Origin: Microbotryum violaceum
Taxonomy: Eukaryota
Direction: 5' to 3'
Length of the DNA stretch: 64,000 nt
Assembly: GCA_001244265.2 (NCBI GenBank)
Contig: LN717261.1
Coordinates: 2,185,591-2,249,590, forward strand
The first letter of the stretch is position 1, and every line of letters begins with the position of its first letter. The position numbers and the translations under genes were made by a program. The notes under the pieces are model-generated. The model was not told where the DNA came from. It searched no databases and worked only from the letters and a program-made list of their open reading frames with translations. Shown one piece after another: positions 1 through 63,700 of the stretch.

Positions 1-738
1 CCAAGGGATAACTCACGCATGCAGTGTCACCACCTGATGTTGAAGAAACAACTCGAAAGTTGACATTCAAAGAGGTCATGTTGAAGGGAATCTCTGCTTG
101 GTAGTTCCCCATCAGCTTCTAACCAATCCCACACCAAGAGCACAGTTCATGAAGTTACTTACTCGAATTCGTAGCTATGTTGCATGCGGCAGGCATTTCT
201 GTATCCTGTATTCGTTGCAGAGCTTCCACGACGACCGCTTCGGATGTCGCAAGCTCGAGGTGGCGATGGGATGAGGTGCGGTAGGTAAGGTGTGAAGAGC
301 AGGAGGGAGAAAGATGGAGAAGTCTGCGCCTCAGTTCAAACCGGAGTCATAGAATGTCGCGGAAGGCCGCGGAATGTCGTGGAGTGAAGCCCGAAGCAGA
401 GGGTCATGTGCCAGGCTGCTTTGATGGGAAATGGAACCTCGGCGAACGTGGACGAAACGGTCTGTCGTCACGTGGTTTGTCTCCCGTTCTCTGACATTCT
501 TTGACATCGACGTGGTAGACACACGAAACAGTCTGCTTCGGGAGACAGAGAGTCACGTCACGTGCTATTCAATGGAACCTCGGCGAACGTAAGCGAAACG
601 GTCTGAAACAGCGTTATGTAGCTAGCTGGGACGCGCTGGACCGAGAGCTGGCTATGACGTCACGCCACGTGGTTTGTCTTTCGTTCTCTGACATTCTTTG
701 ACGTTCTTCGTCTCGACGGATCCATTTAGTAGTATATA
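1..738 (-). mobile_element. Non-autonomous Helitron (family HelA), 5' portion; continues beyond the window start
   Basis: 1-390 is the reverse complement of about 55875-56256, which lies in a copy ending in hairpin+CTAG. 560-730 carries the same 5'-terminal block (cgtcgagac...aaaccacgtggcgtgacgtcat...gctctcggtccagcg) seen at 4130-4370. Confidence 0.7.
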
Positions 739-835
739 CTAGTGCGGTGGCGCTTCGCGCGCCATGACGTCACGCCACGTGGTTTCTCTCGTTCTAGAAC
801 GTTCTTTGTCTCGACGTATCCATTTAGTAGTATAT
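739..835 (-). mobile_element. About 95-bp mini-Helitron: HelA 5' terminus fused directly to a hairpin and CTAG
   Basis: Minus strand reads tatactactaaatggatacgtcgagac...ccacgtggcgtgacgtca-TGGCGC gcgaa GCGCCA-ccgca-CTAG|T. Confidence 0.55.
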
Positions 836-1152
836 AATATATAATAATAATAATATATAGTATATAGTATATAGTATATAGTATATAGTATATAGTATAT
901 AGTATATAGTATATAGTATATAGTATATAGTATATTAGTAGTATAGTATATAGTATATAGTATATAGTATATAGTATATAGTATATAGTATATAGTATAT
1001 AGTATATAGTATATAGTATATAGTATATAGTATATAGTATATAATATATAATAATAATAATATATAGTATATAGTATATAGTATATAGTATATAGTATAT
1101 AGTATATAGTATATAGTATATAGTATATAGTATATAGTATATTAGTAGTATA
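828..1152. repeat. (TAGTATA)n heptamer microsatellite with short (AAT)n interruptions
   Basis: Directly visible tandem array. The YYILYTI stretch of ORF 726..1295 is its translation. Confidence 0.97.
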
Positions 1153-4226
<3,074 letters not shown>

Positions 4227-5844
4227 TAAAATAGGCCGTCGAGACAAAGAACATTCTAGAACGAGACAAACCACGTGGCGTGACGTCATAGGCAGCTCTC
4301 GGTCCAGCGTCTAGCTAGCGCTGTTTCAGACCGTTTCGCCTACGTTCGCCGAGGTTCCATTGAATAGCACGGTGGATGTCGCCGCACAGTCACCGATTGC
4401 ACTGCGTCCACTGCCGGAGGATCAACTTTGTCCAACGGATCCACCGCCGGTGAACGCTGCGATCTCTCAAAGGTTTCAAGGTCAGCAAAGACGTCGTCAA
4501 CGGGAAAGGCCTGAGGAATGAAGTTGATCCTCCGGCAGTGGACGCAGTGCCATCGGTGACTGTGTGGCGGCTGGACGTCGGCGTGCCCTAGATCTTCTGG
4601 AAGTAGACTGATTCGTCGATGTTGATGCGGTAGAGGCTGGACAATAGCATACTGATAATCGAATCACGCAAGAAAACAGGCTCCGGTTGCGTGAATTGCA
4701 GCTCACCATCCCGTGGCAGTCGTGCTGGCAAGTGTGTGCCATTCTTTCAAAAGCAAAGCGCAGGGCAGCATGACTAACCGACCGTTTGGACTGTAACATC
4801 ACAGAGGATCCGAAGCAATGCCTTCCCGTTGTTCTTCAAGTCATCGCCTACACAAATCGTCGACACTTGCATCATGAATGCTGACTTCTGGGTTGAAGTT
4901 GGGGTGCTGCTTGACTTCGTACGGTTGAGAATCCGGGTTAATGGGACACTAAATGTGAGTCTTCACTGCCATTGCTACAGATGGACAACAGCAAGAATAC
5001 TGACACTTGCCCGACGTCTCGGAGGTCGGAAGGACAGCAACGACATCGTCAACGGGAAAGGCTCGAGCGAGAGCGTTCCGGTCCGGACCCACACAGTTCT
5101 TCGCCGAACCCTGCCTCTACCGCATCAACATCGACGAATCATTCTACTTCCAGAAGATCTAGGGCACAATAATTGCGGAGACTCGGGGAAAGGCAGCAAA
5201 ATGAGTCTATCAATCAATCACCTCCACCCCAGCCAACGCCCGAAGTCCACTCTGTCCCGGTGGATGTCGCCGCACAGTCATCGATTGCCCTGCGTCCACT
5301 GCCGGAGGATCACCTTCGTCCAATGGATCCACCGCCTGTGAACGCTGCGATCTCTCGAAGGTCTCAAGGTCAGCAAAGACGTCGTCAACGGGAAAGGCTT
5401 GAGCGAGAGCGTTCCGTTCCGATCCCGCACAGTTTTCCGCCCGACCCTGCCTTTGCCAAATCACGACGAATCAGTCCGCCTCCAGGAGATCCCGAAATGA
5501 TTGCGTTGGACAATCCCCTCCACCCCAGCCAACGCCCGATGCCAACGCTATCCCGCAGCGACGACCTACAGTCCGGAACCTCCGGGAGCGCGTTCAGTTC
5601 GCGCACGGCGACATCCACCCGCCGCACAGACACCGATTGCACTGCGTCCACTGCCGGGAGCCTACCCTCGACATGACTTAGGTGCAATGAACCTTCTGTG
5701 TCGGAAGCTCGGAACTTCTGTCCAGTCCTGCAAGAATTCCCGAAAACAGATGAAGCCGCGTAGAACCGTAGCCATCTGCAATAATGTAACAGAACTGCTG
5801 ATTTTCAATGTGAGGTGGCGCGCGGAGCGCGCCGCCGAACCTAG
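4227..5844 (+). mobile_element. Non-autonomous Helitron HelA, head-to-head with the preceding copy
   Basis: HelA 5' block at 4235-4370, PIF1 motif-III remnant at 4805-4890 (DPKQCLPVVLQ..QIVDTCIMNADFW), and 3' hairpin GGCGCGCggaGCGCGCC followed by CTAG|T at 5841-5844. Confidence 0.8.
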
Positions 5845-11145: not shown

Positions 11146-12053
11146 ATGCACACCGACGCAGAACGCGCTCGCGATCTTTTTTGATTCGATCTTTCTCACC
11201 TTGCATACACTATCCACTCGCAAGCAGGTCGCATCAATGCATTGCAGTTTTGTTGATTACATCCCTTCGCTGTCATACCCGCCCTGCGGTTCTGGTGCGA
11301 GTTACTATTGACGTAATATCTGATCCGAGGTATGGAGCATACCATTCCTTGTGCATTGGGTGTACATTGCGAGCGAAAATCCTTCGTTTCCACCGCTGGG
11401 GGACGAAGGCCTTACACAATGACCAATATCGGCATCCCTATCTGGTTCCCCTGCGACCCTCGTCCCTGTGTCGACACATGGAGCGACGGATGCTGCCCAG
11501 CATGTGGTCTTGCAAGACTGCGACTGATCTCCGTCGCCCTCATACGCATGGCTTCCGCCATGGCGGCATAATTGGAGTTGCGCAAATCATCGGAAGGAAG
11601 TGTTGTCGAACCATTCGTGCCAGAGGCGGGACTAGTCAGTTGTCCCATCCAAGGGAGATTTACGGACTCGGCCAGGTAACGTGGGCTAGGAATGAAGTTT
11701 GTTGCATCGCATTGACCGCGCGATCCACAGTAATGGAAGCCGGCCTGAAAGGGAGAAAAGGACGTCTGTGCACCACCATAATTGATCGAGGAACCTACTG
11801 CAAGGCCTGAGGCCTTTGCCCGAGGTACGATGGAAGGCGATAGAACTTTTGGCTTAGTTGAATAGCTTGCGCGCGCCTAGAACCTCCCTTGGCTTTCGCC
11901 AGCTCACTAACCCGAGGTTCTAGGTGGGTGCCCCTTTTCTCATATGTGTAGTATGTCAGCTCACTAACCCGAGGTTCTAGTGAATTACTATTGTTTGATC
12001 CTGTCTATCGTTCTGGAGCACCGCTGCACGCGGTGCTTCCAATTTTGTTTTGA

Positions 12054-13673
<1,620 letters not shown>

Positions 13674-15273
13674 TGATCGGAGAGTGCGGTTCAGGCGAGC
13701 ATTTGGGCCTGTCTTGCTCATCTCGAAGAGCAGCAAGCGGAAGAGTCGCAATTGCGAGCACTTGAAGTCGCATTTCGCAAGGAGTTCTCGGACCGATTTC
13801 GGGCAGACATCCCGCCGGTCTCACAGTACGAGTCAAAGGTCCGCCATCGTATCGCGCTGAAACCTGGTATGAAGACCCCGCGGCAACCAACCTACGGCAC
13901 TCCGATGCGCTGGCATGCGGCGTGGCAACGCTTACTGGATGAACACCTCGCGGCCGGTCGTCTTCGCCCATCATCGTCGGAATACTCCTTGCCGGCCTTC
14001 ATCATTCCCAAGAAGGGTATGGACACCGACCCGTCGATTATGCCGCGTTGGGTCAACGACTATCGGATCCTCAATGCAGCGACGGTACCAGATCGCACAC
14101 CGCTTCCCCTGCCGGACGAGATTTTGGCCGTCGCAGCTCGGGCGCGCTTCTGGTCCAAGATCGATATGACAAACAGCTTTTTCCAGACAAAGATGGCCGA
14201 GGAGGACATACCAAAGACCGCGGTGGCAACCCCCTGGGGGCTCTTCAAGTGGGTCGTCATGCCGATGGGCCTGTCGAACGCGCCGGCGATGCATCAACAC
14301 CGGGTCAACGAGGCCCTGTCTAGTCTCATAGGCAAGAGCTGCTTCGCCTACCTTGACAACATCACTATCTTCTCGGATACCATGGAGGATCATCAAACCC
14401 ACGTCAAGGAGGTACTCGAGGCGCTGCGGCGGGCCGATCTGTATTGTTCGCCAAAGAAGACCGAACTTTTTTGAACGTCTTGCGACTTTTTGGGGCATGT
14501 CATTTCGCGAAACGGGATTGCAGCAGATCAGTCGAAGGTGGAGCGAATCGTGGAGTGGCCGTGTCCGCGGACTGTCACAGAGCTGCGGGGGTTCCTGGGC
14601 CTCGTTCAATACTTGCGCAAGTTCATCAATGGTCTGGCCCAACATACCAAACCTCTGGCGGATTTAAAGTCGAAGAACGCCAATGTCCGACTCATGTGGG
14701 GTGCCAAGCAAGAGCGACACTTCAACGCCATGAAGACCATTGTCACCTCGCTGCCATGTCTCGAGCCGATCGACCACACGGATTCCACTGATCCCCTCTG
14801 GGTTATGACAGACGCAAGTAATGTTGGGATAGGCGCTGTGTTGCTTCAGGGGCAGGACTGGCACAAGGCACAGCCGGTGGCGTATTGGTCTCGTCAGTAC
14901 ATCAGTGCGGAGGTCAACTACCTGACCCATGAACAGGAGTTTTTGGCGGTCGTGGACGCGCTGCGTCAGTGGCGAGTCAACTTGATGGGTGTCCACTTCC
15001 ATTTCCTTTCTGACCACAAATTGCTGAAGTACCTCAAGACGCAGGAAAATCTATCAAAGCGTCAGGCCCGCTGGGTCGAACGTCTAGCCGACTACGATTT
15101 CGACATCACCTACATTCCGGGAGGCGAGAACACCATGGCAGACGCGATGAGCCGGTACTCTTTCCCCAGGGGGAGCCTGATTCCGTACAGGCGGTTTCGG
15201 AGATGGACGTCGACACACAGCTGCGGAGCCGCCTTGTGGAGGGCTATAACCCCGATCCCTTTTGCCAGCAGGT

Positions 15274-18200
15274 TGTAAGGCCCGTGCGCCTGGGCCTTAG
15301 GAAGAGGGGACGCGCGCCTGGGCACTCTTAGTCTCTCTCCAGCAACTGATACAAGTGTCCAGGTGAGCACAAGGTGGATCAGAAGGCATTGTCATACCAG
15401 CGACTGATACGAGTGTCCAGTGTCAATTCTACATACTTTGGTCCTGTGATCCTTGTCGTCGTCGCTCAGGTGTACACTCCAACGGGGTGTATTACACTTT
15501 TTTCACACCGGTCAAAGACGCACACTGCCACGTGCGCCAGCGACACACCCACGGAACGAACAAACAACAACGAACGGTAACAGACGAACATGGCGCGTGG
15601 CAAGAACTCCACCGCCCAACTAGCGCCACCATCGGCACCAGAGGAAAGGGAGGACAGCTCGGACGATGAACAGGAGGTTGCAAGGATGCCAAGGGGCATG
15701 AAGCTCAGCGCGCCCAAGCTTGCGAACGGCACGAAACTCACTCTCTCCTTGATCCGCGCATTCCTCAACGACATGGACAACATGTTCTTCCAGTACCAAG
15801 TGAAGAACATGCGACTAAAGATAATGTTCATCGCCAACCACATTGAACACGAGGCGCTCAAGGATTGGCTGGTGACGGCGACGGAGGAACGCACGTGGGA
15901 CGAGCTTAAGGTCGCCTTCATCCACAAGGCACTACCCTTGGATTTCGCCTTCACGACAGAGCAGCATATTCGCCACAGCCACCAAGGCAACCACGACTAC
16001 GCGACGTGGGCTTCGGGACTTCGGGCCTCACAGCTGCAGCTCGGCCAGACCGCCCTCAGCAACATCAAGTTCATCAAGATCCTACTGTTCAACATGGACC
16101 CTCAATTGAGCGTTGTTCTACGACAGAACGACCTTCTGTTGGGTACTGGCCTACACCAAGATGATTTAGACTACGTGGCGGCTTCAAAGGCGGCGCTCCC
16201 CAAGCTCAAGACATTATCTTACAAGGTGTTCGAGCGATTGGCACAATCCCAATGGAATGTGATCATAGCGTTTCGTCCTGTAGCAACTCCCCGAACGCAA
16301 ACCTCGACTACGAGCCCAAAGACCAGCTCTGGCCGACCTTTCGTGACCTCGGCGACCACTCGACGCAGGCCGACGAGACTCACGGACCCAATGAAGGATT
16401 ATCTCTCGGAGAAGGAGGGATGCTTTAGCTGCAGACGCATCAACACGGATCACCGCGCGAGCGACTGTACAGCCAACTGGCAGCAGGCACCGGATGTCCC
16501 GGAGGGGTGGGCCGAATTCGAAAAGAAGACGGCGAAAGCGGCTAAGAACGACACCCTCCATCAAATTGCGGAAAACTCAGAAGACGACATCTCAACGGAC
16601 GAAGAAAACGAGTACGCCCCTCAGTTCATCTCCACCATTCCCATCACTCTGCACAACAACACGAAGTCAAAGACGTTGCAGGCACTTGCTGACTCTGGGG
16701 CCTCTTCCTCCTTTATCGCAGATAAGGTGGTTGAGAAACTGGGGTTAGTCATGCATCGTCTCCCTGTTCCTACATTGGTCAAAACTGCAATCAAAGGCCA
16801 AGCACGCGCGTTTCATGTTACCTTGTTTGTAAAGATTCCGATCACGCTCGAGAATGGCGCATGGGAAGCGGGACACACGATTCTGAAGGTGGCTAAACTG
16901 CAGGAGCCCTTGGAAGTGGTACTGGGGTTCAACTTCCTTGTAAAACACAAGGTTACCATCGACTTTGCGGCACACAAGATCCTGGTGCCACATCCGACCA
17001 TGCCTGACGTAAAGATCGACCTTCTTGCGCCGGTCTTCGGACCCCACCCCCAGCGAGCCGCGGCGAGGAATGCCAAACGAAGCGATAAAGCTCGGATCAA
17101 CTGGCGTGCAGTGATTGCCTACATCGATGGGGTCCAGCAAAGGGAAACGGAGTTGACGGAGTTGCGACGGCAGGAGGCAAAGCTACGGGTCGAGTTTGCG
17201 GATCGGTTCCCAGGGGATATTCCTCCGGTTTCGACGTATGAATCACCGGTCCGACACCGAATCGAGCTGAAGGACGGAGCAACAAAACCGAACTTGAAGG
17301 GTTATCGAGCGGCACACCGTTACCGGGAAGCCTGGAAGCGCCTGATTGATCAGCACGTCGCCAATGGCCGCCTTCGAAAGTCGTCATCAGAGTTCGCGTC
17401 CCCGGCGTTTGTCATCCCAAAGAAAGGTATGGATAAGGACCCGTCAATCCAACCACGCATGGTCTGTGACTACCGAGTACTCAACAAAGGGACGGTCCGA
17501 GATCGCACACCTCTACCACTTCCGGACGAGATTCTGTCGGTCTGCTCAAACGCGCGATTCTGGGGGAAGATCGACATGACAAACTCCTTCTTCCAAACCA
17601 AGATGGCCGAGGAAGACATCCGGAAGACGGCGATTGTGACACCGTGGGGATTGTACGAGTGGACGGTAATGCCAATGGGACTCTGCAACGCCCCGGCAAC
17701 GCATCAGCGCCGAGTCAACGAGGCACTCGGAGACCTTATCGGGAGCGTGTGTTTTGTGTACCTCGATGACATCACAATCTTTGCCGACACCTTGGAGGAA
17801 CATGAACGACGGGTGCGACTAGTCCTGGAGGCGCTGAGACGGGCGGATCTGTACGTATCGCCGAAGAAGACGGAACTGTTTGCTGCCGAGTGCTTTTTCC
17901 TCGGCCACCAGATCACTCGGGAAGGCATCAAGGTCGATCCTGACAAGGTGGAGCGGATCCAACAGTGGCCGCGACCAAGGACGGTGAAGCAATTGCGGGG
18001 ATTCCTAGGTCTGGTGCAGTATCTGCGGAAGTTCATCGACAAGCTTGCGGATTTGACGGCGGTTTTAGTCCCGCTGACACGGAAAGGGGTGCATGTCGAC
18101 GAAGGCTGGACGGGAGAGCACGACAAGGCGTTTGAGGCAATCAAGTCCTTGGTGGGCAACCTTCCTTCTCTACATCCCATTGACCATTCCGACAAGGGCG

Positions 18201-20374
18201 ACCCATTATGGCTGATGACGGATGCGAGCAATCGGGGAATCGGGGCGGCACTCAGTCAAGGAAAGCAATGGCAGACGGCCATGCCGGCAGGCTATTGGTC
18301 ACGACAGTACAACCCAGCGGAAGGCAACTATGCAGCCCACGAGATGGAATTGCTTGCAATTGTGGACGCCCTTCATCACTGGCGGGCGGACCTTTTGGGT
18401 GTTCGATTCAAGATCCTCACAGACCACCACTCCTTGGCGGGCTTCATGAAGCAACCAAGCCTTTCACAACAACAAGCTCGATAGACCGAACGACTGGCCG
18501 ATTACAACTTCGAGATTGTATATGTACGAGGTCCAGAGAACACAGTGGCTGATGCATTGAGTCGTTACTCTTTCCCGGAGGAACCCACAGCCGGCCGCCA
18601 GGCGAGCGACAATGTCAACGTGCTGGCGGAGGCAACTCTCGATCCTGCCTTCCTTTGCAAACTCAGGGACGGTTACCGCAAGGACCCGCAATGTCAACAA
18701 GCTATCAAGAACATTGACTCAACACCAGGCTACTCAGTCGACAATGGAATCGCACGGTTCGAAGGACGGATCCTCCTGCCAAAGATGGGGAACTTTCGGG
18801 AGGACGCGCTACATGACGCGCATGATGCCGCAGGCCATTTTGGACTACACAAGACGTATGAACACCTACGCCGCAACTTTATCTGGTCGGGAATGAAGGA
18901 TGCATGCAAAGATTACGTTGAGTCCTGTGCTGCTTGTCAGACAATGAAGATGCATGGCACCGGTTTTGCCGGTCGGATCCACAATTTGAATGTGCCTGAC
19001 CGGCCAATGCGGGAAGTTGGCCTAGACTTTGTCGGGCCACTTGTACCTAGCAATGGTAATGACGCACTGCTTACGGTAACAGATCGCCTTTCAGGCTACG
19101 TTCGCCTCATCCCCTGCCGCACGACGGACGACGCGACTACCACGGCGGACCGGTTCTTGAGGGGTGGCATCGACACTTCGGCATGCCACGAGTGCTGGTC
19201 TCCGACCGCGACAAGCCGACCACAAGCGAGTTCTGGCGAGCGTACATGGGCCAGCTGGGAACGAAACTGGCAACATCGACGTCTTTCCACCCACAAACGG
19301 ATGGCCGAAGCGAGCGAACAAATCGGACCGTGATCCAAGTCCTGCAAACAATGGTCAACCGACGGCAAAATGACTGGTCAAAGCACTTGGCTACGGTGGA
19401 GTTTGTGATCAACTCCAGTATGAACAGGTCGACGGGGAAGACGCCATTTGAAGTGGTACTTGGGTTCACGCCGGAGCTGACACCGATCACCCCAGTGGAG
19501 GGCTCAACCACGTCACAGGCAGTCAAATCCATCGTGGAACAACGTGAAGCAGCGGTTGCGGAAGCCCGAGACAATTTGGCAATTGCAAAGATCCGACAGG
19601 CCAACCAAAGCAACAAGGCGAGGAAACCGGAGCCCGGGTTTGCAGTTGGCGACATGGTCTTAGTCGACTCGCGGGATTGACGACTGCGGTACAAGGCCGA
19701 TGGGGAAGCACGGTCAGCCAAACTCTTTCCCCGGTTTGACGGCCCCTACGAAGTCATAGCAGCACGACCCGAAACCTCAAATTACAAGCTGAAGCTCAAG
19801 GCGGGGGACAAGTCGCACAACGTCTTCCACGCCTCCAAGCTCCGACGCTGGGTAAAGAACAATGGGGTGGTGTTCCCAGGACGAGAGGCAACGGAACCAG
19901 CGGCCATTATCGTCCAAGGAAACGAGGAGTGGGAGGTAGAACGGATTGTGGACGAAAAGGGGAAGGGGTCAAGGAAGAGGTTCTTGGTGAAATGGAAGGG
20001 GTGGGCAGACAGCGACAACACATGGGAGCCATGCTCACACCTGGAAGACACCGCAGCGTTGGAAGAGTGGGAGAGTGGGAAGGCGGGGGAGGACAAGGCA
20101 AGGAGGGGAGGGTGTAAGGAGGGAGGGGAGTTTGGTTTAGGTGGTGGAGAGTGTAAGGCCCGTGCGCCTGGGCCTTAGGAAGAGGGGACGCGCGCCTGGG
20201 CACTCTTAGTCTCTCTCCAGCAACTGATACAAGTGTCCAGGTGAGCACAAGGTGGATCAGAAGGCATTGTCATACCAGCGACTGATACGAGTGTCCAGTG
20301 TCAATTCTACATACTTTGGTCCTGTGATCCTTGTCGTCGTCGCTCAGGTGTACACTCCAACGGGGTGTATTACA
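15274..20374 (+). mobile_element. Ty3/Gypsy chromovirus LTR retrotransposon (family B), full length, nested in element A
   Basis: 223-bp LTRs at 15274-15496 and 20152-20374 (TGTAAGGC...GTATTACA), TSD CAGGT. Gag-PR-RT-RH-IN-chromodomain order. Confidence 0.96.
15590..20151 (+). pseudogene. gag-pol polyprotein of element B (disrupted)
   Basis: 964-aa ORF with [12 protein letters not shown] and TDAS ends at a premature TAG (18482-18484, QAR* for QARW). Integrase HHCC (HDAAGH..CAAC), core domain and chromodomain ([22 protein letters not shown]) follow, with a frameshift near 19160 and TGA at 19678-19680. Confidence 0.92.
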
Positions 20375-21601
20375 CAGGTCAAGCGCAATCTCGACTCGTC
20401 GCCAGGGTTCTCTTGTGTGGATGGGGTGCTGTATTTCGAGGGTAGGATGGTTGTACCTGCGGTGCCACAGCTTCGGGAGGACATCTTACACGACGCTCAC
20501 GACGCGCTGGGTCACTTCAGCCCGCGCAAGACCTTCCATCAGGTGTCTCGGACTTTCTTCTGGCCGCGGCTGCGAACATCATGCGACGCCTATGTCTCAA
20601 CATGTGATGTATGTCAACGTACCAATGCAACAACCACGGGCGCATTGGGGGTATCGCATGCGTTGGCTGTGCCGGATGGGCTGATGCAGGAGGTGGCTCT
20701 CAATTTTGTGGGCCCCCTGCCCAAGAGCCAGGGGTTCGACATGCTCCTCACGATCACCGATCGTTTATCGGGCTACACGCGCTTGATACCTAGCCTGGCC
20801 GCGGACACCGCCAAGGACATAGCCGAACGTTTTCATGAGGGATGGCACCGCTTCTTCGGACCGCCAACAAGGATAGTCTGCCATCGGGATAAGCTATTTA
20901 CATCGCATTTCTGGCGCGCGTATCACAATCTGATGGGCACTCGACTCGCCATGTCTACATTGTTCCACCTGGAAACCAACGACCGTAGCGAACGGACCAA
21001 CAAAACCGCCATTCAAGCCTTGCGAGCCGTGGTCAACAAGCAGCAGAACAATTGGGTCCGACATCTGGTCAACATTGAGTTTGCGATCAACACAAGCGTC
21101 AACGCCTCAACGAACAAATCGCCGTTTGAGGTGGTCCTAGGTCGTTCACCAGCCTGTTGCCAACGTCTCTCAATTGACCTGACTTGCCCGATGTGCCTGC
21201 GGCAAAGGACCTGATCGCCGAGCGGAAGGCGGTGTTGGCGGAGGTCCGGGATGCATTGGCTGCAGCCAAGGTGCGGCAAGCGGAGCAGGTCAACCGACAT
21301 CGACGGCCAGAACCGGACATTGCGGTGGGCGATTTTGTCATGGTGGACACCCGTGACCGTCGTCTTCAATTTAAAACGGGACACCGCAAGTCGGCCAAGC
21401 TCTTCGATCGCTTTGAGGGACCCTACAAGGTTATTGCCGCGAATGTTGCCACCTCCAACTACACACTGCAGCTTAGCGAAGGCGACCGATCACATCCTAC
21501 GTTTCACGTAAGCAAGCTCCGTCCTTACCGAGCCAACGACCCAACCTCTTTCCGAATCGAGAACCCACCAGACCCAAACCAGTTATAGTCGATGGACATG
21601 A

Positions 21602-21832
<231 letters not shown>

Positions 21833-21945
21833 TAGTTGAATAGCTTGCGCGCGCCTAGAACCTCCCTTGGCTTTCGCCAGCTCACTAACCCGAGGTTCTA
21901 GGTGGGTGCCCCTTTTCTCATATGTGTAGTATGCCAGCTCACTAA

Positions 21946-22059
<114 letters not shown>

Positions 22060-22354: not shown

Positions 22355-26698
<4,344 letters not shown>

Positions 26699-32125: not shown

Positions 32126-36990
<4,865 letters not shown>

Positions 36991-37148
36991 GCAATGCGGG
37001 ATTGAGAAGTACTCGTCGCCTCTGGCAAGTAGTGCGCAAAGAATTGTGAACGCGAGACTCGCCACCTCGACCCCTTTACTGGACCTTTGTCCTAGGTGTT
37101 CAAAAGTTCAATGTCAGTCTGTGCTTGCGCCTTAAACAGAATGGAACA

Positions 37149-38845: not shown

Positions 38846-41800
38846 AATCCGCCTAGCGCGCGTCTCTATTTGTATTAGCCGCGCGGGCCAATCGCGTCTT
38901 TCCTTCTTCTCCACTTGATTACGAACTCATTGGCTTGCCACTGCCAACGTAGCGGCCCAGCCAACTCGAGTCATCAAGTCATCATGCCCGGTGATACGGA
39001 CACTGTGGTACCAGGGGGAACAACCTCTATCGTCTATGTCAAGCCCCGCGATATCGACCCGTCATGCCACCTGCGCAACGCGGGAGGCTGGTCGCAATGG
39101 ATCAACGACGTCCGTGGAGCTCTCGGGGGCGACTATTGGAACTGCACGCTTGCGATGCCCATTCGACTCCTCCATAGTGCGCGCTGTTTGTGGCGTTTGT
39201 TTTAGGATGGAAGAAGAGTTTGTTTTAGGATGGAAGAAGAAACAGCGAGCCGCGATAGTGCGAGTCTCGAAAAGTTAGCCCTTGCTCTAAGCAGTGGGTG
39301 CGATACGACCTTGCAAAGCAGCCGGGTACGGCGGCTGCTTACAACGTAGTGGCAGGCTAGCTCATCAGCCCAACTGTCCAACAAGGGCAGAGGGCTTACG
39401 AGGGATGTTACCCACTTTGAGTGAGTAGAGACTGGCAGGGGGGGTGCCGGAACCACAACACGAAACGCTGAGGCGTGCGGGACAACGAGGGAGAGGGAGA
39501 GGAAGGGCCCGCGCGCGCCAGCAGGTGAGCAAGGCGGGAGGCCCAAGGGGGCCGGGAAGAGTGCGTGCTGGCACAGGGTCCAAAAAATGCGTGTTCGAAG
39601 AGTGGAGCGCGAGCGAGCCCCGTTAGGCCGAGACCAGCGCGCTTGAGCTGTCCGTGTCAAAATCTTGCAGCAAAGGCCGAAAAGACTATCAGAAACCCAA
39701 TGCGCGCACCGACCTGGAGCACGCCAACTTCCAAGCGATCACGCTCTTGAGGCACTCGGTCTCCCTCAACATCAAGAAGCAGATCAAAGATGGATTTGAT
39801 CACACTCCCACCGACGTCTTGAAGATGATCAAGAAAGCGGTCGCAGCAGGCACAGTCACCGACATCTTCATCAAGCTCCAAGCCCTGCTCGATGCGGGTC
39901 CACCTCCCTCCGGTGTCGACGCATTTGAGAAGTACCAAGCAAACACCATTGAGCTGTTCAACACTCTTTTGGGATACAACCTTACCTTTGACCAGGTCAT
40001 CTCGATACGCTTGATCCACTTTGGCAAGGACCTCTACAAGGAGTACTATACTCAAACGTTCCGTCAAGACCTCGACAAGCTCCCTGATCCGATCAAAGCG
40101 CTTCAAACGCTTCAGACTCAAGCTGAATCCACACCGGCACACAAGCCCGTGGTGATGGTAGCTAGCTTGACCGCGACGGACAGATCTTCATCGACTCTGT
40201 CAGCTCCGTGCCGACACTGTGGAGGTCCTCACTGGAATCAAAAATGCCCCTTCAAGGACAAGAAGTCCAAGGCCTCCTCCGCGCCGTCCGCATCACTCGT
40301 CGCTGCTCCCGACATCTCGACGTTGGTAGACAGCCCGGTCCGCGCATACCTCACCGCAGCGATGTCCACATTGGCCAAACCTTCCCTCATCCTCGACAGC
40401 GGCGCGACGCATCACATTGTCAACGATCGCGCTTGTTTCACCAACTTCCGCAAGTGTAAGCCTGCTCCGCTCGAGGGCATCACGGGCGAGGCGGTCAATT
40501 TGATCAAAGGTGTTGGTTCCGCTGTCGTTCGCTCCTTTGATGGCAGCATCGGCCAACTCCACCACGCGTTGTTCGTTCCCAGCGCGTCGGTCAGCCTCTT
40601 CTCCGCACCGACGCCCCGGGCTACGACATCAGCCTTTCCCGAGGCAAAGCAACAGTCTCAGTCGGCGGGTCAATTTGCCACACCGGGGAGATCACAAACG
40701 TTTTGTACCACATGCATGCTTCCCTTGTCGACGTCACTACTCTCATCGAGCAAACGGGTGCGTCCCCATGCGCGTTCGCGGCCGTTTCCGTCTCCATCAT
40801 GCACGGACTGTAATACCCCAGGCCCTTCACGACTAGGTTACACGGTCCAAAAGACTGATGATTTCAATAGATGCATAATGAAATCAGAAGGGTAGTTAAA
40901 TAGCGTAAGGCAACCAAGCCTTACCCCTGCCACCACCAGACTTAGAGATACTCTAAGCATGATTAGACGAATCTCTAATGGCCCCACCGTTCATTCATTG
41001 ATTCGTCACGGCCATAATTAATTAAAGATCAAAATAACTATTTCAATAGAGGTCGGCAACTCGGATCCCGGTGGGGCATTTTTGAAGGATGCTATTTTGC
41101 CAGCCGCGGAGAAAAGCCCGAGCAGGACCGGCGCAAGGCCCTTGGGCCGACCTAGTTATTTTGATCTCTAATGGCCGTGACGAATGAATGGTGGGGCCAT
41201 TAGAGATTCGTCTAATCATGCTTAGAGTATCTCTAAGTCGGTGGTGGCGGGTGTAAGGCTCGGTTGCCTTACGCTATTTAACTACCCTTCTGATTTCAAT
41301 ATGCATCTATTGAAATCGTCAGTCTTTTGGACTGTGTAACCTAGTCGTGAAGGGCCTGGGGTATTACACGGACATTTCGCTCACCTTCACCCACGCGCTC
41401 TACAACAGCTGATCTCAACTGAGGCTGTGCTGGGAGTCAACATGGAGGTAGCATCGAACGAAGACTTGAAATGTGATACATGCCAGGCTGGGAAGATCAC
41501 ACATCACCCTTTCCCCACCGTCGCGTCGAATCGTTCGGCCCAGCCTCTTGATCGAGTCCACATGGACCTTCTTGCGTTCGACGGCGCCGTGTCGTTAGGC
41601 GGCGCGAAATACGCCCTCGTCATTGTCGATGATTACACCCGATATCTCTGGGCAATTCCGATGTCGCGCAAGTCTGATACCTTTTCGGCCTTCAAGTCGT
41701 GGCTCGCAAAGGTCGAGCGCTCCTCGTCGAGAAAACTCCTGGCAGTCCGCTCCGACAACGGTGGTGAATTCTTGTCGAACGAGTTCTCGAGCTTCCTGGA

Positions 41801-43351
41801 AGAACAAGGCATCACTCGTCAGCTTTCGATTCCCGATACCCCTCAGCAAAACAGGGTTGCCGAACGCGCAAATCGCTCGATCACCGAGCGTGTCCGATCA
41901 ACTTAATGCTCCACCAGTCGGGTCTACCCCACGCTTTGTGGGCCGAGGCATTGGCGACATATGTCTACGTCAAGAATCGCTCACCACACTCGGCAAATTC
42001 AGGCGTCACACCACACACGCGTTGGCACGGATCGAAGCCGTCGGCCGGCCATCTCCGCAGTCGAAGGCTACGAAGGCAAATGCCTCCGCCTTCATCGATC
42101 GATCTACGGTCTCAAGCAGGCAGGTCGAGTGTGGAACGACACGATCAACGCCACGCTCGCAAGTCTCGGCTATCGTCGCCTCGCCTGCGACGAATGCACC
42201 TATCATCATGAGGACGCTGGGGGTGATCACTACATCGCACTCTACGTCGACGATCTACTCTTCTTTGGGCCGGATCTCGGGGAAATCGATCGAGTCCTTG
42301 ACCAACTCGACACCCTCTACGGAGTCAAACGCCTCGGCCCGACCGAATGGGTACTCGGGGTTCAGGTCGTACGACACGACGATGGCGGAATCTCCCTTCT
42401 CCAGCGTCAATACCTCCTTGACGTCTTGGCTCGCTTCAACATGTCCGACTGCAACCCCTGCAAGCCACCCATGGAAGCCAACCTACAGCTTTCGCCGGAA
42501 CCCGATCCAGACTCCGCCGTCAATGCCATCTACGTTCCATGATTGGCTCACTCATGTACGCTGTCGTTGCCACTCGCCCTGATCTAGCCCACTCCGTCGG
42601 ATATCTGTCACGTTTCATCGGCAAGGCGGGCGACACTCACCTCGAGGCGGCCAAGCGCGTCCTTCGTTACATCAAAGGATCGCTCGATCTTGGCATACAT
42701 TACACGCGCACCGGTGAGCCTCTGCTGGGGTACGAGGGGTACTCTGACTCGGACTGGGGATCGGACATACAGATGTCGAGGTCCACTATGGGTTACTTGT
42801 TCAAAATGGCAGGTGGGGCCATCTCATGGTCATCTTGTCTCCAACCTCGCGTAGCTTGTTCATCCACGGAAGCGGAGTACCTGGGGCTCTCGCATGCAGC
42901 CAAGGAGGCTGTCTTCCTTCGCTCGCTCCTCACCAAACTCGGTCTCGACACGTCGTCCCCTTTACGTCTTCTCGGGGATAACCAGGGAGCTATAGCGCTC
43001 ACCCAGCATCCGGTTTTCCACGCTCGCACCAAACATTTGCGCATGTTGGAGCACTTCGTTCGGGAGCACGTTCGGAACGGCGAGATCTCGGTCACCTACA
43101 TCCCAACCCACGATATGGTTGCCGACATTTTCACCAAGCCGCTGCCACTAGTAGTTTTCCAGCGTCATTGTGACGCCATCGGTCTGCGCCGCATTTCAGG
43201 CCAAGAGCAAGGGGGGGTGTTGAGGTAGATTACTCTTGCCTTAAATCCGCCTAGCGCGCGTCTCTATTTGTATTAGCCGCGCGGGCCAATCGCGTCTTTC
43301 CTTCTTCTTCTCCACTTGATTACGAACTCATTGGCTTGCCATTACCGCCAA
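38846..43351 (+). mobile_element. Ty1/Copia LTR retrotransposon (family C2), degenerate
   Basis: Direct repeats at 38846-38948 (5'-truncated) and 43218-43351 after PPT AAGGGGGGG. Knuckle CRHCGGPHWNQKC, protease LILDSGATHH, integrase RSDNGGEF, RT LYVDDL, RNase H YSDSDW. An internal deletion near 42060 joins integrase to mid-RT. Confidence 0.9.
40809..41368. mobile_element. 560-bp fold-back element made of two inverted copies of the 117-bp mini-LTR plus adjacent sequence
   Basis: Arms 40809-41057 and about 41146-41368 are imperfect reverse complements. Termini TGTAATACCCC / GGGGTATTACA, perfect TSD CGGAC. It interrupts the Copia C2 reading frame (MHG|HFAHLHP). Confidence 0.9.
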
Positions 43352-43784
43352 CTGGTTCAGCACATCGCTATTCGATTTCTACAAGTATGGGCTATGATAG
43401 CGGTCAGCAATAGTATGTATAACTAAACTTAGTGCAAAAATGGGCATGGCGATACTTTGACAACCACTGGTGTGCGGAAAGAGTCAATTATTCACCAGCA
43501 GCAGCCAGTGCTCTTTGCGCGCGAGCATATCCTTACGCATGTCACGTGCGCGCGCGGGCGTATCCTTACACATGTCGACACATGTAAGGATACGAGGGTG
43601 CGGTAAGGACACAGAAATTTTGAATCACTACAAGTCTTGCAATACACATGCTATCAGGTAGTTCTTGCAGACACCGTTCAGAAATAGTTATATGTTGATG
43701 TTACAAGATGAACAGGTTTGGTTGTGTATTGACCTTAACTCATGTGTAAGGATATATCCTTACATGTGTCATGGCCGGGTCTCA

Positions 43785-48112
<4,328 letters not shown>

Positions 48113-55616: not shown

Positions 55617-55870
55617 TGTTGTGGATTTGGACTTGGAGTACCAATGAATGAATGAAGATTCGCTGTAGCTACACGGCGTTGATAGATGACCTATTGTGAG
55701 ATAGAGTATCGCCAAGGTCAATCAACTTGTAGCAGGCGAATGGGCGAGATAGATATCGAGTGTGTGTTAAAGAAGAAGGAGAGAGTGAACGAGACCAGAG
55801 CCTTAGATAGTATCCGCGTGCAAGCCACCTCTGAGTCCAATCAAGCCAGCGTGTCACGGGCTTGCCGACA
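55617..55870 (-). mobile_element. Solo LTR related to the Copia C1 LTR, with non-matching flanks
   Basis: TGTTG...CGACA. Shares gatagatgacctattgtgagatag...aaggtcaatc...ggcgagat..gatatcgagtg with 47770-47860. Flanks are TCCTC and CTGGG. Confidence 0.7.
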
Positions 55871-58163
55871 CTGGGCTTCACTCCACGACATTTCGCGGTC
55901 TTCCGCGACATTCTATGAGCCCGGTTTGAACTGAGGCGCAGACTTCTCCATCTTTCTCCCTCCTGCTCTTCACACCTTACCCATCGCACCTCATCCCATC
56001 GCCACCTCAAGCTTCCGACATCCGAAGCGGTCGTCGTGGAAGCTCTGCAACGAATACGGGATCAAGAAGTGCTTGCCGCATGCAACATAGCTACGAATTC
56101 GAGTAAGTAACTTCATGAACTGTGCTCTTGGTGTAAGATTGTTCAGAAGCTAACTACCAAGCAGAAATTCCCTTCAACACGTCCTCTTTGAATGTCAACT
56201 CTCGAGTTGTTTCTTCACCGTCAGCTGGTGACACTGCATGCGTGAGTTATCCCTTGACATGACTGTGCAGTCTTAGATCTGACGGAAAAACTGATACGAA
56301 AAACAGACATTGGATGTCAGTGATACAGCGGAAGGATTGACTTCGTACGGTTGAGAATCCGGGTTCATGGGACACAAAATGTGAGTCTTCACTGCCATTG
56401 CTACAGATGGACAACAGGATAGTTCTAAAGGACGAATCGCAAAAACAAACAGGTTCCGTGAATTGCGGCTCACCATCCGTGGCAGATCCTCAACGGCTCG
56501 GTTCGGTGGAGTGATCGTTGTGGTGGCAGGTGTATGCCAATCTTTCAAAAGCAAAGCGCAGGGCAGCATGATTAACTGACCGGTTCGACTGTAACATCAC
56601 AGGGGATCCGAAGCGATGCCTTCCCGTTATTCCCAAGTCATCGTCTACACAAATCGTCGATTTCGTTGATGCTCCGGGAGGGACAGGCAAAACGTTCTTG
56701 GAAGAGACGGTCCTTGCTCAGATTCGGTCAGAGAAAACATACGCTCTTGCCGTTGCATCATCGGGTATTGCTGCACTGCTACTGCCAAAAGGCAGAACGG
56801 CACATTCACGGTTCAAGATCACGATCGACATCTTCGACGACTCTACATGCAATGTTCCGAAATAAGGACAGCTCGCCGAGCTCTGGGACGAGGCACCGAT
56901 GCAGCACCGTCGATGTTTCCAGCTGGTGGACAGGATGTTGCAACATGTGCGATCGTCAACGGCTCGGTTTGGTGGACTGACCGTTGTGATGGCAGGTGCG
57001 TGCCAATGTTTCAGCAGCACAGCGCAGGGCAGCATGACTAACTGACCGGTTGGACTGTAACATCACAGGGGACAAGTTTTCTCAAGATGCCTCCCCGTAT
57101 TCCAAAGTCATGGCCTGCACAAATCGTCGACGCTTGCATCATGGAATGCTGGCTCCTGGGGGGAAGTTGAGGGGCTACATCTCGTGGCGGATCCTCAATG
57201 GCTCGGTTCGGTGGAGAGACCGTCGTGTTGGCAAGTATGTGCCAATTTTTTGAAAGCAAAGCGCAGGGCAGCATGACTAACTGACCGGTAGGACTGTACC
57301 ATCACAGGGGATCCGAAGCAATGCCTTCCCGTTATTCCTAGGTCGCTTGCTTCATGGAATGCTGACTTCTGGGGGGAAGTTGAGGTGCGGCTTGACTTCG
57401 TACGGTGCAGAATCCGGGTCATGGGAACACTAAATGCGAGTCTTCACTGCCGTTGCTACAGATGGACAACAGCAAGAATACTGATACTTGCCCGACGTCT
57501 CGGAGGTCGGAAGGACAGCAACAAAATTGTCAATGGGAAAGGCCTGAGCGAGAGCGTTCCGGTCCGGTCCCCCACAGTTCTTCGCCGAACCCTGCCTCTA
57601 CCACATCAACATCGACGAATCATTCTACTTCCAGAGGATCTAGGGCACATCAAGTGCGGAGACTCAGGGAAAGGCAGCAAATGATTCTATCAATCAATCG
57701 CCTCTACCCCAGCCAACGCCCGACATCCACTCTGTCCCGGTGGATGTCGTCATCCAATGGATCCACCGCCTGTGAACGCTGCGATCTCTCGAAGGTCTCA
57801 AGGTCAGCAAAGATGTTGTCAACGGGAAAGGCTCGAGTGAGAGCGTTCCAGTCCGGTCCCACAGTTCTTCGCCGAACCCTGCGTCTACCGCATCAACATT
57901 GAAGAACCAGTCTACTTTCAGAAGATCTAGGGCACACCGACGTCCAGCCGCCACACAGTCACCGATGGCGCTGGCACTGCGTCCACTGCCGGAGGATCAA
58001 CTTCATCCAATGGATCCACCGGCTATGAACGCTGCAATCTCTTGGAGGTCTCAAGGTCAGCAAAGACGTCTTCAACGGGAACGGCTTGAGCGAGAGCGTT
58101 TCGTGTAACAGAACTGCTGATTTTCAGTGTGAGGTGGCGCGCGGAGCGCGCCGCCGAACCTAG
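55871..58163 (+). mobile_element. Non-autonomous Helitron HelA, 5'-truncated
   Basis: Homologous to 1-390 and 4700-5844. Ends GGCGCGCggaGCGCGCC gccgaac CTAG|T. Confidence 0.85.
56662..56995 (+). pseudogene. PIF1-type Helitron helicase exon remnant (motifs I to III); absent from the ORF track
   Basis: Manual translation: FVDAPGGTGKTF..AVASSGIAALLLPKGRTAHSRFKI..CNVPK*GQLAEL-WDEAPMQHRRCF..FGGLTVVMAG, followed by a GT..CTAAC..CAG intron. Confidence 0.92.
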
Positions 58164-59743: not shown

Positions 59744-59860
59744 TGTAAGGCTCGGTTGCCTTACACTATTTGACTACCCTTCTGATTTCAATATGCATCT
59801 ATTGAAATCGTCAGTCTTTTGGACCGTGTAACCTAGTCGTGAAGGGCCTGGGGTATTACA
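59744..59860 (+). mobile_element. 117-bp solo mini-LTR
   Basis: TGTAAGGC...GGGGTATTACA with a perfect TSD GGTAG. Confidence 0.9.
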
Positions 59861-60557: not shown

Positions 60558-60779
60558 TGTAATACACCCCGTAGGAGTGCACACCGGAGCGACAACGATA
60601 AGATCACAGGACCAAAGTATGTAGGATTGACACTGGACACTCTACGTTAGTCGCTGCTATGACAATGCCTTCTGATACACTTGGGCTCACCTGGACACTC
60701 TACGTTAGTTGCTGAGGAGAGACTAAGAGTGCCCAGGCGCGCATCTCTTCTCCTAAGGGTCAGGCGCACGGGCCTTACA
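60558..60779 (-). mobile_element. Solo LTR of a family-B subfamily inside the family-E integrase
   Basis: Diverged copy of the 223-bp B LTR. TSD CTGCC/CGGCC (one mismatch). Confidence 0.88.
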
Positions 60780-63700
60780 CGGCCGCTGTGTCGGCTTCGC
60801 GCGCAGGGAGGAGGCGGACATATCCCGACAGTCGATTGGTGATCGTCAAAACCCGGTCAAACCCCTTGTTTGTTGGCAACGGTCCGACAAAGTCCACGGC
60901 GATGTCCGCCATAGGGCGCACTGGAACGGGAAGGGTGTGAAGCTTGCCCGCGACGCGAGTGGTACGGGCCTTCGTTAGTTGACATGAGTCGCATTGTTGC
61001 ACGTATTGCTTGATTTGGCGGGACATGTTCGGCCAAAAGTACGTCTGTATAACAGTCTGGTACATTTTTACATCACCTAGGTGCCCCAGCGCGTCATGAG
61101 CATCGTGAAGGCTGGACTCATGGAGCGGGGCTAGTAGTGGAATGACAAGCCGGCCCCGTAAATACAGCAATGCGTCATAATCTTCAACTCCGATGCGACC
61201 AACGCAATGTTGTTCAGAGCTTGCTGGCAGAATGCGTCGGTTATGTACGCGTCGACAATTTCATGCTTGACGACATCCGAGAGCAAGAGTTGCGAAAGGT
61301 TGGTCACAATGATGGGAAGTGGCTCGGGAAAGGAGTACCTGCTCACTGCCTCGGCTACGATGTTCTCCCTGCCCGGGAGATACTGGAGGTCGTAATCGGA
61401 TTCGGCCAAGGTGTCAAGCCAGCGCACCTGGCGTCGCGAGATGACCGTGCGCTGCGTCTGAAAATGCTCAAGTGTGGAATGGTCGGTAAGGATGTGAAAA
61501 TGGCCACCCAGGAGATCAATGCGCCATTCCTTGAGAGCCTCAACAATAGCTAGGGGTTACTGCTCGTGCGTAGGGTAGTTGCGTTCAGCTGGAATGTATT
61601 GACGCGACCAGTGGGCAGTGGGGTGTGCGGTCTTCCAATGCGAGCCCTGCAGAAGCACACCTCCGATTCCTTGAAGACTGGTGTCGGTCATCACCCAGAA
61701 TGGCATGGCATCGGCAGAGTGGTCGGGCGGGCGTAGGCAATCAAGGGAGACAACAATGGACTTGATGGCTTCAAAGTGACGGACCGTTGGAGTTGTCCAG
61801 AGGTTGTCGATGGATGTTAGCCCTTTGATTGTTAACGGTGTCAGCGCAGCGGTATGCTCGGCAAGGCCCGGAATGAATTTGCGGAGGTACTGCACCAACC
61901 CAAGAAACCCCCTGAGTTCTGTGACGGTCGCTGGGAGATGCCAGTCATGGATGCGCTTGATCTTCTTGGGGTCGGCGTGTACGCCGGAGCGGTTGATGAT
62001 GTGGCCAAGAAACTCACACTCTGAGGCGGCGAGGTTGGTCTTTGATGGTGAGCAGTAGAGTTTGGCTCGGCGCAGGGCGTCCAGAACTTGGCAAACACGG
62101 GCCTCGTGCTCCTCCAGTGTATCGGCGAATATGGTGATGTCGTCAAGGTAGACGAAACAGATGGTGCTGATTAATCCGTGCAGGGCGTCGTTGACACGGC
62201 GCTGGTGGGTGGCGGGCGCATTGCAGAGTCCCATGGGCATGACCGTCCATTCGTACAAACCCTAAGGTGTCGCAACAGCGGTCTTTGCTATATCCTCTTC
62301 CGCCATCTTGGTCTGAAAGAAGGAGTTAGTCATGTCAATCTTGGCCCAGAAGTGCGCTTTGGAGCACGTCGACAGGATGTCATCGGCCAGGGGCAAGGGT
62401 GTGCGGTCCTTGATGGTGTGCCGATTGAGGTGGCGGTAGTCGTTCACCCATCGCGGTGCAATGGTGGGGTCCACATCCGAGCCCTTCTTGGGTATGATGA
62501 ACGCCGGCGACGCGTATGGCGAACGTGAGGGGCGAAGACGGCCACTTGCGAGGTGCTTTTGAAGCAGCAGGTACCATGCCTGGCGGTGGCGTTTGGCGAC
62601 CGGATAGCCGCGCAGGTTGATCACAGTACGCGGGTTGTCAAGCTCGATATGGTGTCGCACCGGGGATTGGTAGGTGGCAACCGGTGGAATGTCGTCAGGG
62701 AAGCGATCAGCGTAAACCGCGCGCAGGCGCCGGTCGAGCGCGGCAAGGCGGAGCTGTTCGTCCTCGTTGATGGGCGCAATGGCGGCCACGGGCGACGTGG
62801 CGCGCGGCTGGGACGATAGTTCAAGCAGGTCAATTGGCTCCTCCGGGTTATTCTTACACGTGAGGTGGGGGTGGGGGAAATGACCTAAGTCAATCTTGTG
62901 CGTGTAGATGAAGTTGCCTCCAAGAATAAGCTCGAGGTCCCTCCCAAGGGGCGCCAATTCGGTATCACGAAGGGGCAAAGAGATAGGAGAGGTGAGCCGG
63001 ACGTAGGGGCTCGAGGCGAGGGACGAGGGACGAGTCGGCGGTGAGCTGGGGACGGGGGTCCCCCCGAGGCTGGGGTGGTGGTGGGAGCGGGTCGCGTCGT
63101 CGAGCCCGTTGCGAAGGCCGTCGGTCGGGTGTGGGGCCTCTGTTGTAGTCTGTTGTTGGAGGGCGGCAACTTGGGTCGCGATGGCCGCTCGGCGTTGCAA
63201 TGACTCCCCACTCTTCGCGTCCGATCCGTTCGAATACTTGTTAGTCGAACTTCCCGGGTTGGTCCGCCGGTGCATCGCTGTAGACGTCGGTTTCCGACAT
63301 GACCACAGCGGGGGCGGGAGCATCGAGGACGAGTCTCTCGAGTGAGAGGTCGGACCATCCAGCTAGCGACGAGACAACATGCGTGCGGAGGAGTCGGCAC
63401 TACATTGGCTGCAATTCAGCAATTCGGGCCTTCTGAATTTCCTCCCCCTCAAAAGTCAATGTATCGACTCAAACGATGCACAAATTCTTGATTTGATGTA
63501 GGAAGCTCAAAAACGGAGTTTCAGGTCACGATGTAGTGATCTGAAGCCGAAGTCTCCAAACTTACACCTGTCTTACTTTATGGGAAAATCCGTCCACCGA
63601 AAATTTTCTCAGGTTTGACTGTACTGAAGACTCCACATGGAATTTGGGCGCCTTCTCGACTCCTGAGTACTGAACCTCGATCGCTGCGGGCTCTAACAGG

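Follow-up and report, generated by a model that had tools for sequence, protein, structure and literature searches.

The 64,000-nucleotide stretch of Microbotryum violaceum DNA considered here (contig LN717261.1 of assembly GCA_001244265.2, positions 2,185,591 to 2,249,590; hereafter the window) holds nested copia and gypsy elements. One of them, a degenerate copia-type element (39627-43228, plus strand), hosts a 560-bp fold-back element at positions 40809-41368, which is inserted just ahead of the GAG-pre-integrase/integrase part of the host pol. The fold-back runs from TGTAAT to ATTACA (TG..CA ends) and is flanked by two copies of CGGAC (40804-40808 on the left and 41369-41373 on the right), recognised as a target-site duplication (TSD) both from the sequence read and from contigs of the empty site. 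A first-pass annotation of this DNA had described two inverted long terminal repeats (LTRs) enclosed in a single CGGAC TSD, and this description is confirmed by a repeat search and by empty sites that lack 565 nt in all four public sequencing runs that we used.

The repeat search recovered two pairs of inverted arm segments, namely 40809-40937 with 41240-41368 (129 nt, 95% complementary) and 40939-40996 with 41182-41239 (58 nt, 98%), with weaker pairing out to 41040 and 41153, for a total of about 232-250 bp per arm. In a gapped alignment, the arms differ by 7 mismatches over 223 aligned positions; beyond a 10-nt bulge, seven further bases are paired (41051-41057 with 41146-41152) and an 88-nt spacer (41058-41145) is left unpaired in the centre. 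The same alignment bears out the earlier statement that the arms run inward, past a tract resembling a polypurine tract (PPT), around a spacer of this length. Folded as single-stranded DNA, the 560-bp element reaches -261 kcal/mol, versus -64 +/- 4 kcal/mol for 100 shuffled sequences (z = -46.5).

Read from left to right, the element starts with a reversed 117-bp LTR (40809-40925, minus strand), whose U5 end is outermost and whose innermost base is a G in place of the T of TG seen in the other three copies of this unit. It is followed by the complement of the PPT-like tract (40926-40937, minus strand; the minus strand reads GGTGGTGGCAGG, one mismatch away from the mirror of GGTGGTGGCGGG) and by the internal 3' tail of the left arm (40938-41040, minus strand), which has extra bases relative to the right arm at 40938, 40989-40992, 41000-41003 and 41016-41022. 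Next come the 10-nt bulge TTTCAATAGA (41041-41050, plus strand), which places the junction between left arm and native sequence at 41040/41041, at CTA(G), and a central unique part (41051-41152, plus strand) in which a native 7-bp inverted repeat (the seven further base pairs mentioned above) surrounds the spacer. The internal 3' tail of the right arm (41153-41239, plus strand) is devoid of an 8-nt GAATGAAC and of one T that the left arm and other copies have, and it leads to the PPT-like tract GGTGGTGGCGGG (41240-41251, plus strand) and to a forward 117-bp LTR (41252-41368, plus strand), again with its U5 end outermost. The PPT-like tract is thus found on both arms, and GGTGGTGGCGGG is G-rich and not all purine. 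No open reading frame (ORF) of at least 100 aa was found inside the 560-bp element, neither arm has a 5' side on which a primer-binding site could lie, and no TGG-type site follows either LTR. A search of Rfam yielded 0 matches at E values up to 1, with no tRNA-like or other RNA family. On this last result we rejected a small-RNA-gene content of the LTR of the Cassandra or Helenus type; Helenus is given as not found in Microbotryum in PMC10886601.

The fold-back is the product of one precise insertion event with a 5-bp duplication. Logan contigs of the four public runs (X1, X4, X8 and X9, under three organism labels) were aligned to positions 40200-42000; contigs fitting both arms were placed on one arm only, and parts not covered by the contigs listed, such as 40932-40992 in X4, X8 and X9, do not serve as evidence. 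In every run, contigs about 92-97% identical to the flanks, which represent other copies of the copia family, join position 40801 to position 41367. They skip 565 nt (40802-41366, with 7 letters of ambiguity), that is, the 560 bp of the element plus the 5 bp of one TSD copy. The left junction is itself crossed in 4/4 runs by a contig starting at 40471, with 0-1 mismatches, and extending to 40838 in X1, X4 and X8 and to 40819 in X9. The depth of this contig is far below that of the paralogs (89.9 versus 597 in X1; 8.9 versus 85, 20.8 versus 202 and 5.6 versus 40 in the other runs). In addition, an exact X1 contig covers 40886-40957 and holds four differences specific to the left arm. Within the 64-kb window there is no paralogous empty site for the fold-back, as its flanks match only themselves, and a blastx comparison of the 560-bp element with the intact copia polyprotein of the window gave no match.

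The outer 117 bp of the arms match two further units of the window, at 2368-2484 and 59744-59860 (both on the plus strand), at 92.6-97.5% identity. Both units have their own TSDs (GCAAG/GCAAG and GGTAG/GGTAG, respectively), in agreement with the first-pass annotation. The unit at 2368 also has paralogous empty sites in the window: at two sites (around 4866-4890 and around 57137) the sequence runs on without interruption, with one GCAAG only at the position of the unit. Three of the four units start with TG and all four end with CA, the left-arm copy having GG at its inner end. The unit begins with TGTAAGGCTCG and finishes with GGGGTATTACA. Because its ends and the G-rich tract preceding it match those of a gypsy element with 5-bp duplications, described below, the 117-bp unit is an LTR, and its isolated copies are solo LTRs of the same family. 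All the differences among the four units are private to one copy, so that phylogeny does not tell whether the nearest relative of one arm is the other arm. As a separate observation, the solo LTR at 2368 is inserted into a member of a group of short repeats (about 120-550 bp long and 80-92% similar, some of them inverted) that form two clusters, at 1-5550 and 55870-58100.

When the 560-bp element was compared with the 64-kb window by blastn, only itself and the two solo units were recovered, and the interior had no other copy. Word depth in the contigs of the four runs, which is a rough guide only and not a copy number, is about 40-70 times higher over the LTR than in the left-junction contig, and the ratio of spacer-contig to junction-contig depth is 1.1 in X1, 4.9 in X4, 4.2 in X8 and 1.5 in X9. 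As LTR depth greatly exceeds spacer depth, these values suggest that the genome holds many solo LTRs and few copies with interiors. Two scans of metagenome contigs for exact patterns taken from conserved parts of the LTR returned 0 matches each; the organism is probably not in that collection, and the scans are uninformative on copy number.

The gypsy element in question is a chromodomain Ty3/gypsy element located at 15274-20374 (plus strand; 223-bp LTRs, TSD CAGGT), which is a candidate autonomous partner of the 117-bp family, and a second copy of it lies at 22355-26698 (minus strand; TSD GTGGC). It encodes a protease, a reverse transcriptase, an RNase H, an integrase zinc domain, a Tf2-type SH3 domain and a chromodomain, and the closest protein relatives of its pol are from Microbotryum silenes-dioicae (67-92% identity). 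Its LTRs start with TGTAAGGCCCG and end with GGGGTGTATTACA, and GGTGGTGGAGAG stands directly before the 3' LTR, at the place occupied by GGTGGTGGCGGG in the right arm. Among the three families with paired LTRs in the window, only this one has LTRs that, like the 117-bp unit, start with TGTAAGGC and end in TATTACA, with a GGTGGTGG tract immediately ahead of the 3' copy, and blastn aligns the region of the 117-bp unit with the gypsy element over 30 nt across the PPT and the LTR start (80% identity, E = 0.008). Beyond the PPT and the LTR ends, blastn finds no similarity between the interior of the fold-back and the gypsy element. With nothing but the integrase sites and the plus-strand primer in common with it, the 117-bp family looks like a non-autonomous parasite of the gypsy family, whose enzymes it would borrow, judging from these sequence resemblances. 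As for the two gypsy copies themselves, they are arranged tail to tail about 2 kb apart and are 99.8% identical over 3858 bp; the second is without about 757 bp (15760-16516 of the first), and the first is nested within another element (11799-22019), whose LTRs are 243 bp long. Near the solo 117-bp unit at 59744, at 60558-60780, there is a solitary LTR about 87.5% identical to the 223-bp gypsy LTR.

The coding strand of the gypsy element fixes the direction of the LTRs, the unit at 41252-41368 being forward. Both arms are therefore 3' halves, made of an internal tail, a PPT and a 3' LTR, and both outer ends are U5 ends, which supports what had been proposed from the sequence at first. Normal reverse transcription produces a molecule that has one U3 end and one U5 end, so that two U5 ends require an inverted duplication that predates integration. 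We accordingly accept, on established knowledge, the earlier statement that ordinary reverse transcription cannot give such a molecule, and the accompanying proposal that the inserted DNA had two identical ends and was put in place by an integrase is sound, as the locus displays one integrase-type event with a 5-bp duplication.

Comparison of the two arms with each other and with other copies of the family provides information on how the palindrome was assembled. Of the seven substitutions between the arms, five are transitions, four of these at CpG and one TCG to TTG, a type of change resembling repeat-induced point mutation (RIP) that has been described for Microbotryum (PMC10502011). Indels private to one arm occur on both sides: 7 additional nt at 41016-41022 are found in the left arm, and the right arm is without the 8-nt GAATGAAC and the T mentioned above, the left arm's states at these 8-nt and 1-nt positions being common to contigs of other copies. 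With separate substitutions and private indels, the arms must have been alike when formed and have since decayed separately, and their divergence argues against a palindrome created by sequencing. Variant contigs (3 mismatches and small indels) run from 41046/41050 to 41180, hence from the spacer into the right arm and across 41152/41153, in 4/4 runs, and other contigs continue through the PPT into the LTR (X8, 41160-41281). Consequently, the spacer, the right arm, the PPT and the LTR make up the 3' part of the family in its native, colinear order. Contigs of other copies still carry TTTCAATAG to the left of the spacer, and one X1 contig extends 57 nt further left; the 30 letters shown of this extension are unlike the inverted arm and end with CTAG just before TTTCAATAG. 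The window reads CTA followed by TTTCAATAG at 41038-41049, and the right arm starts just after a CTAG at 41151-41154. On the evidence of this contig, the joint falls at 41040/41041, on a 4-nt palindrome (CTAG) that is present at both places in the native sequence and from which one G is missing here.

We consider that the fold-back is, with a probability of roughly 0.55, an aberrant palindromic complementary DNA (cDNA) of a small non-coding LTR element resembling a terminal-repeat retrotransposon in miniature (TRIM), inserted by a gypsy-type integrase. The evidence leans towards a single aberrant product rather than a new class of elements converting LTRs into terminal inverted repeats (TIRs), and of the two options left by the first-pass annotation, the one-off cDNA dimer fits best. 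Under this scenario, the nascent minus-strand DNA would have copied the 3' LTR, the PPT, an internal tail of about 90-100 nt and the spacer, and would have left its RNA template at the upstream CTAG. Pairing with the CTAG where the internal tail begins would have followed, within the same strand (snap-back self-priming) or with another nascent cDNA. As the spacer is bordered by a native 7-bp inverted repeat, the 3' end would be kept beside this CTAG, which would explain why the palindrome resumes after a 10-nt bulge, and extension would copy back out to the U5 end. Duplex formation might involve a second minus-strand strong-stop DNA priming on the 3' U5, and the double-stranded product would have a correct U5 integrase site at each end. 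A gypsy-type integrase could then have inserted it in one concerted step into the copia element, generating the 5-bp duplication, and the inserted element would have decayed thereafter. Precedents exist for the separate steps: self-priming of minus-strand DNA by reverse transcriptase following RNase H action has been described for HIV-1 (PMC6088434), and in vitro HIV-1 integrase pairs two U5 ends preferentially, with 5-bp duplications (PMC8742673). Once integrated, the fold-back was probably unable to move again, as a primer-binding site is missing and the LTR promoters, placed as they are in inverted LTRs, would face outwards given the established function of LTRs.

Several points weigh against this scenario. 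The rve core of integrase had no match in the gypsy copies of the window, and the partnership is to be read at the level of the family. Nor did we find in the gypsy element a tRNA-type primer site or the means of Tf1-like self-priming, the first 40 nt after the 5' LTR having no complement of at least 7 nt in the LTR. Neither the window nor the listed contigs showed a canonical member of the family, in which direct LTRs would be combined with a primer-binding site, and none of the contig pieces listed spans the right or central junctions. The break point relies on one loose-end consensus of 30 letters, from one contig of run X1, and the G expected from CTAG is absent from the window at the joint. 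The conversion of a snap-back strand into a two-ended duplex is a step that we infer. Depth ratios are equivocal: by bin, the ratio of arm to spacer depth is 0.8 in X1, 1.5-2.0 in X4, 0.9-1.1 in X8 and 1.5 in X9, and the left-arm bin 40932-40992 reaches a depth of 426 in X1, versus about 100 for the spacer. Calculated by contig, the arm/spacer ratio is 1.2 in X4 and 1.0 in X8.

Other explanations have to be weighed against the same evidence. The joint may have been made by another enzyme, if two truncated cDNAs of the family that had been made separately, and of which each had a single good U5 end, were fused head to head by host end-joining at CTA(G) and then integrated. The unequal reach of the arms and the one-sided spacer would be accounted for, a joint at 3-4 nt of microhomology with one base missing is typical of end-joining, and this model agrees just as well with the TSD, the U5 ends and the precision of the insertion. 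However, two rare molecules would have to meet and be joined before capture by the integrase, and the native 7-bp inverted repeat, by putting the end of one strand near CTAG, speaks for a switch within one molecule. No observation distinguishes directly between the two models, and we regard end-joining as an unlikely route that deserves to be kept in mind. A later origin of the palindrome, from an element with direct LTRs or from two nested or adjacent elements rearranged by inversion, replication template switching or gene conversion, would not be out of place in a dense retroelement nest with several large inverted pairs, and microhomology-mediated fold-back inversions are known in genomes. 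Yet an outer U3 end cannot easily be made into a U5 end by recombination between LTRs if the flanking duplication is to stay exact. Here, both outer ends adjoin an intact CGGAC, the empty site is without exactly 560 + 5 nt, and the element contains no host sequence (blastx against the copia polyprotein, blastn against the window), all of which makes a secondary rearrangement very improbable. Palindromic chimeras do occur in long-read data, and the absence of central-joint and right-junction contigs among the pieces listed would fit an assembly or sequencing error over a simple solo LTR insertion. Such an artefact would nevertheless be a perfect palindrome, while the arms differ by 7 substitutions and 5 indels; an exact X1 short-read contig covers the left-arm-specific bases at 40886-40957, the left junction is present in 4/4 runs, and the gap at the empty site corresponds to the full 560 + 5 nt. 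We therefore give almost no weight to an artefact.

The remaining explanation is that the fold-back belongs to a propagating non-autonomous family, whose DNA or cDNA would be moved by a gypsy-type integrase acting on two U5 ends. This corresponds to the undescribed class, or LTR-to-TIR conversion similar to Ginger elements or to the miniature transposable elements with inverted repeats called MITEs, that the first-pass annotation had put forward. With its arms of about 250 bp, its TGTAA termini and its short duplication, the fold-back recalls features of Ginger TIRs, and the Discussion of the paper describing them proposes that TIRs originated from two oppositely oriented LTRs (PMC2836005). 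Arm depth also exceeds spacer depth in some runs, and the count of fold-backs covers the 64-kb window only. In that window, however, there is one fold-back for two solo LTRs, and solo LTRs arise from direct, not inverted, LTRs. At least one other interior-bearing copy, the one in X1, is not palindromic at the same joint. The element encodes no transposase, having no ORF of at least 100 aa, and its interior has no coding relatives in the window. The arms have diverged by 3% and have private indels, with no sign of recent activity. To our knowledge, no excision mechanism exists for retroelement integrases, and the excision of Ginger elements is itself called unknown in PMC2836005. Given these points, along with the missing primer-binding site and the outward promoters, the proposal of a new class is not supported, and we judge a propagating family to be quite unlikely.

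The aberrant cDNA scenario may also be set against known systems. Like TRIM-type elements, the 117-bp family combines very short LTRs, which start with TG and end with CA, with duplications of 5 bp, a PPT-like tract ahead of the 3' LTR and a few hundred bp of non-coding interior; it also has many solo LTRs and ends that mimic an autonomous gypsy element of the same genome. The fold-back itself combines TG..CA LTRs, a TSD within the 4-6-bp range, a PPT by the 3' LTR and a small, non-coding body (560 bp). It departs from TRIM-type elements in that its LTRs (40809-40925 and 41252-41368) are inverted instead of direct, with two PPT sides and no primer-binding side. The Ginger1 and Ginger2/TDD elements have TIRs of 40-270 bp and TGTNR termini similar to those of gypsy LTRs (PMC2836005), and the fold-back shares both features, with arms of about 232-250 bp and TGTAA termini. 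Ginger elements nevertheless encode an integrase-like transposase and occur as families (PMC2836005), whereas the fold-back has no ORF and one copy in the window; unlike them, its arms consist of a recognisable retroelement PPT and LTR. TSDs are of 4 bp in Ginger1 (CCGG/CCGT) and Ginger2 and of 5 bp in TDD-4/5, so the 5-bp CGGAC duplication fits only the TDD subgroup (PMC2836005). With respect to MITE-type families, we found one inverted-end copy in 64 kb.

In snap-back minus-strand products, nascent DNA folds on itself once RNase H has removed the template and is extended by reverse transcriptase into an inverted duplication with a loop. The products described were formed from strong-stop DNA in vitro and were unintegrated dead ends (PMC6088434), while the switch proposed here would have occurred later and the product is integrated. 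Retrotransposons of the DIRS group have inverted terminal repeats too and are not known to make a TSD. They use a tyrosine recombinase instead of a DDE integrase (PMC3950715), in contrast with the TG..CA ends and 5-bp duplication of the fold-back. Head-to-head inverted LTR tandems likewise bring two inverted retroelement copies together at one place, but they are two full insertions joined at a target-site motif (PMC5932611), whereas the fold-back consists of two 3' halves within one outer duplication and with no target sequence between them.

Some features of the surrounding nest may be recorded here. When paralog contigs are compared with the window over 40200-42000, the most frequent differences are T in the window for C in the paralog, 13-15 times per run, and A for G, 10-11 times, versus 6-8 and 7-8 times, respectively, for the reverse changes. 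C-to-T type mutation thus seems to have affected the host copia copy more strongly, which is what the RIP-like process reported in Microbotryum would lead one to expect. Two other copia copies, at 32126-36991 (plus strand) and 43782-48112 (minus strand), flank the fold-back region in inverted orientation and are 99.8% identical over 4210 bp, forming inverted repeats of about 4.2 kb located about 7 kb apart. The minus-strand copy has an open gag-pol frame of 1325 aa, and an exact 83-bp direct repeat (47780-47862 and 47877-47959, spaced 97 nt) lies within its LTR (47736-48112). Finally, a tandem array of 14-bp repeats, about 430 bp long and with a spacing of mostly 14 nt, is found at 764-1198.

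These observations document in Microbotryum a very small LTR family, with LTRs of 117 bp, along with its likely autonomous partner. They also provide a clear case from nature in which a retroelement integrase inserted, in one concerted step, a DNA carrying the same LTR end on both sides; in the limited collection of literature searched, we found no description of a natural insertion of an LTR retrotransposon by two same ends. That inverted LTRs can serve as functional ends in nature is one step of the route proposed to lead from LTRs to TIRs (PMC2836005). The insertion of the fold-back does not show that its product can move again, and we hold it very doubtful that the fold-back is a mobile form with two U5 ends, able to insert repeatedly, and as such a living intermediate between LTR retrotransposons and Ginger-like TIR transposons. 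For the host, the locus amounts to a long hairpin in a fungus reported to have core RNA interference (RNAi) genes, as Dicer, two Argonautes and an RNA-dependent RNA polymerase have been reported in M. lychnidis-dioicae (PMC4469406). Read-through transcripts of the hairpin of about 230 bp may thus feed the RNAi of Microbotryum, silencing both the 117-bp family and its gypsy partner.

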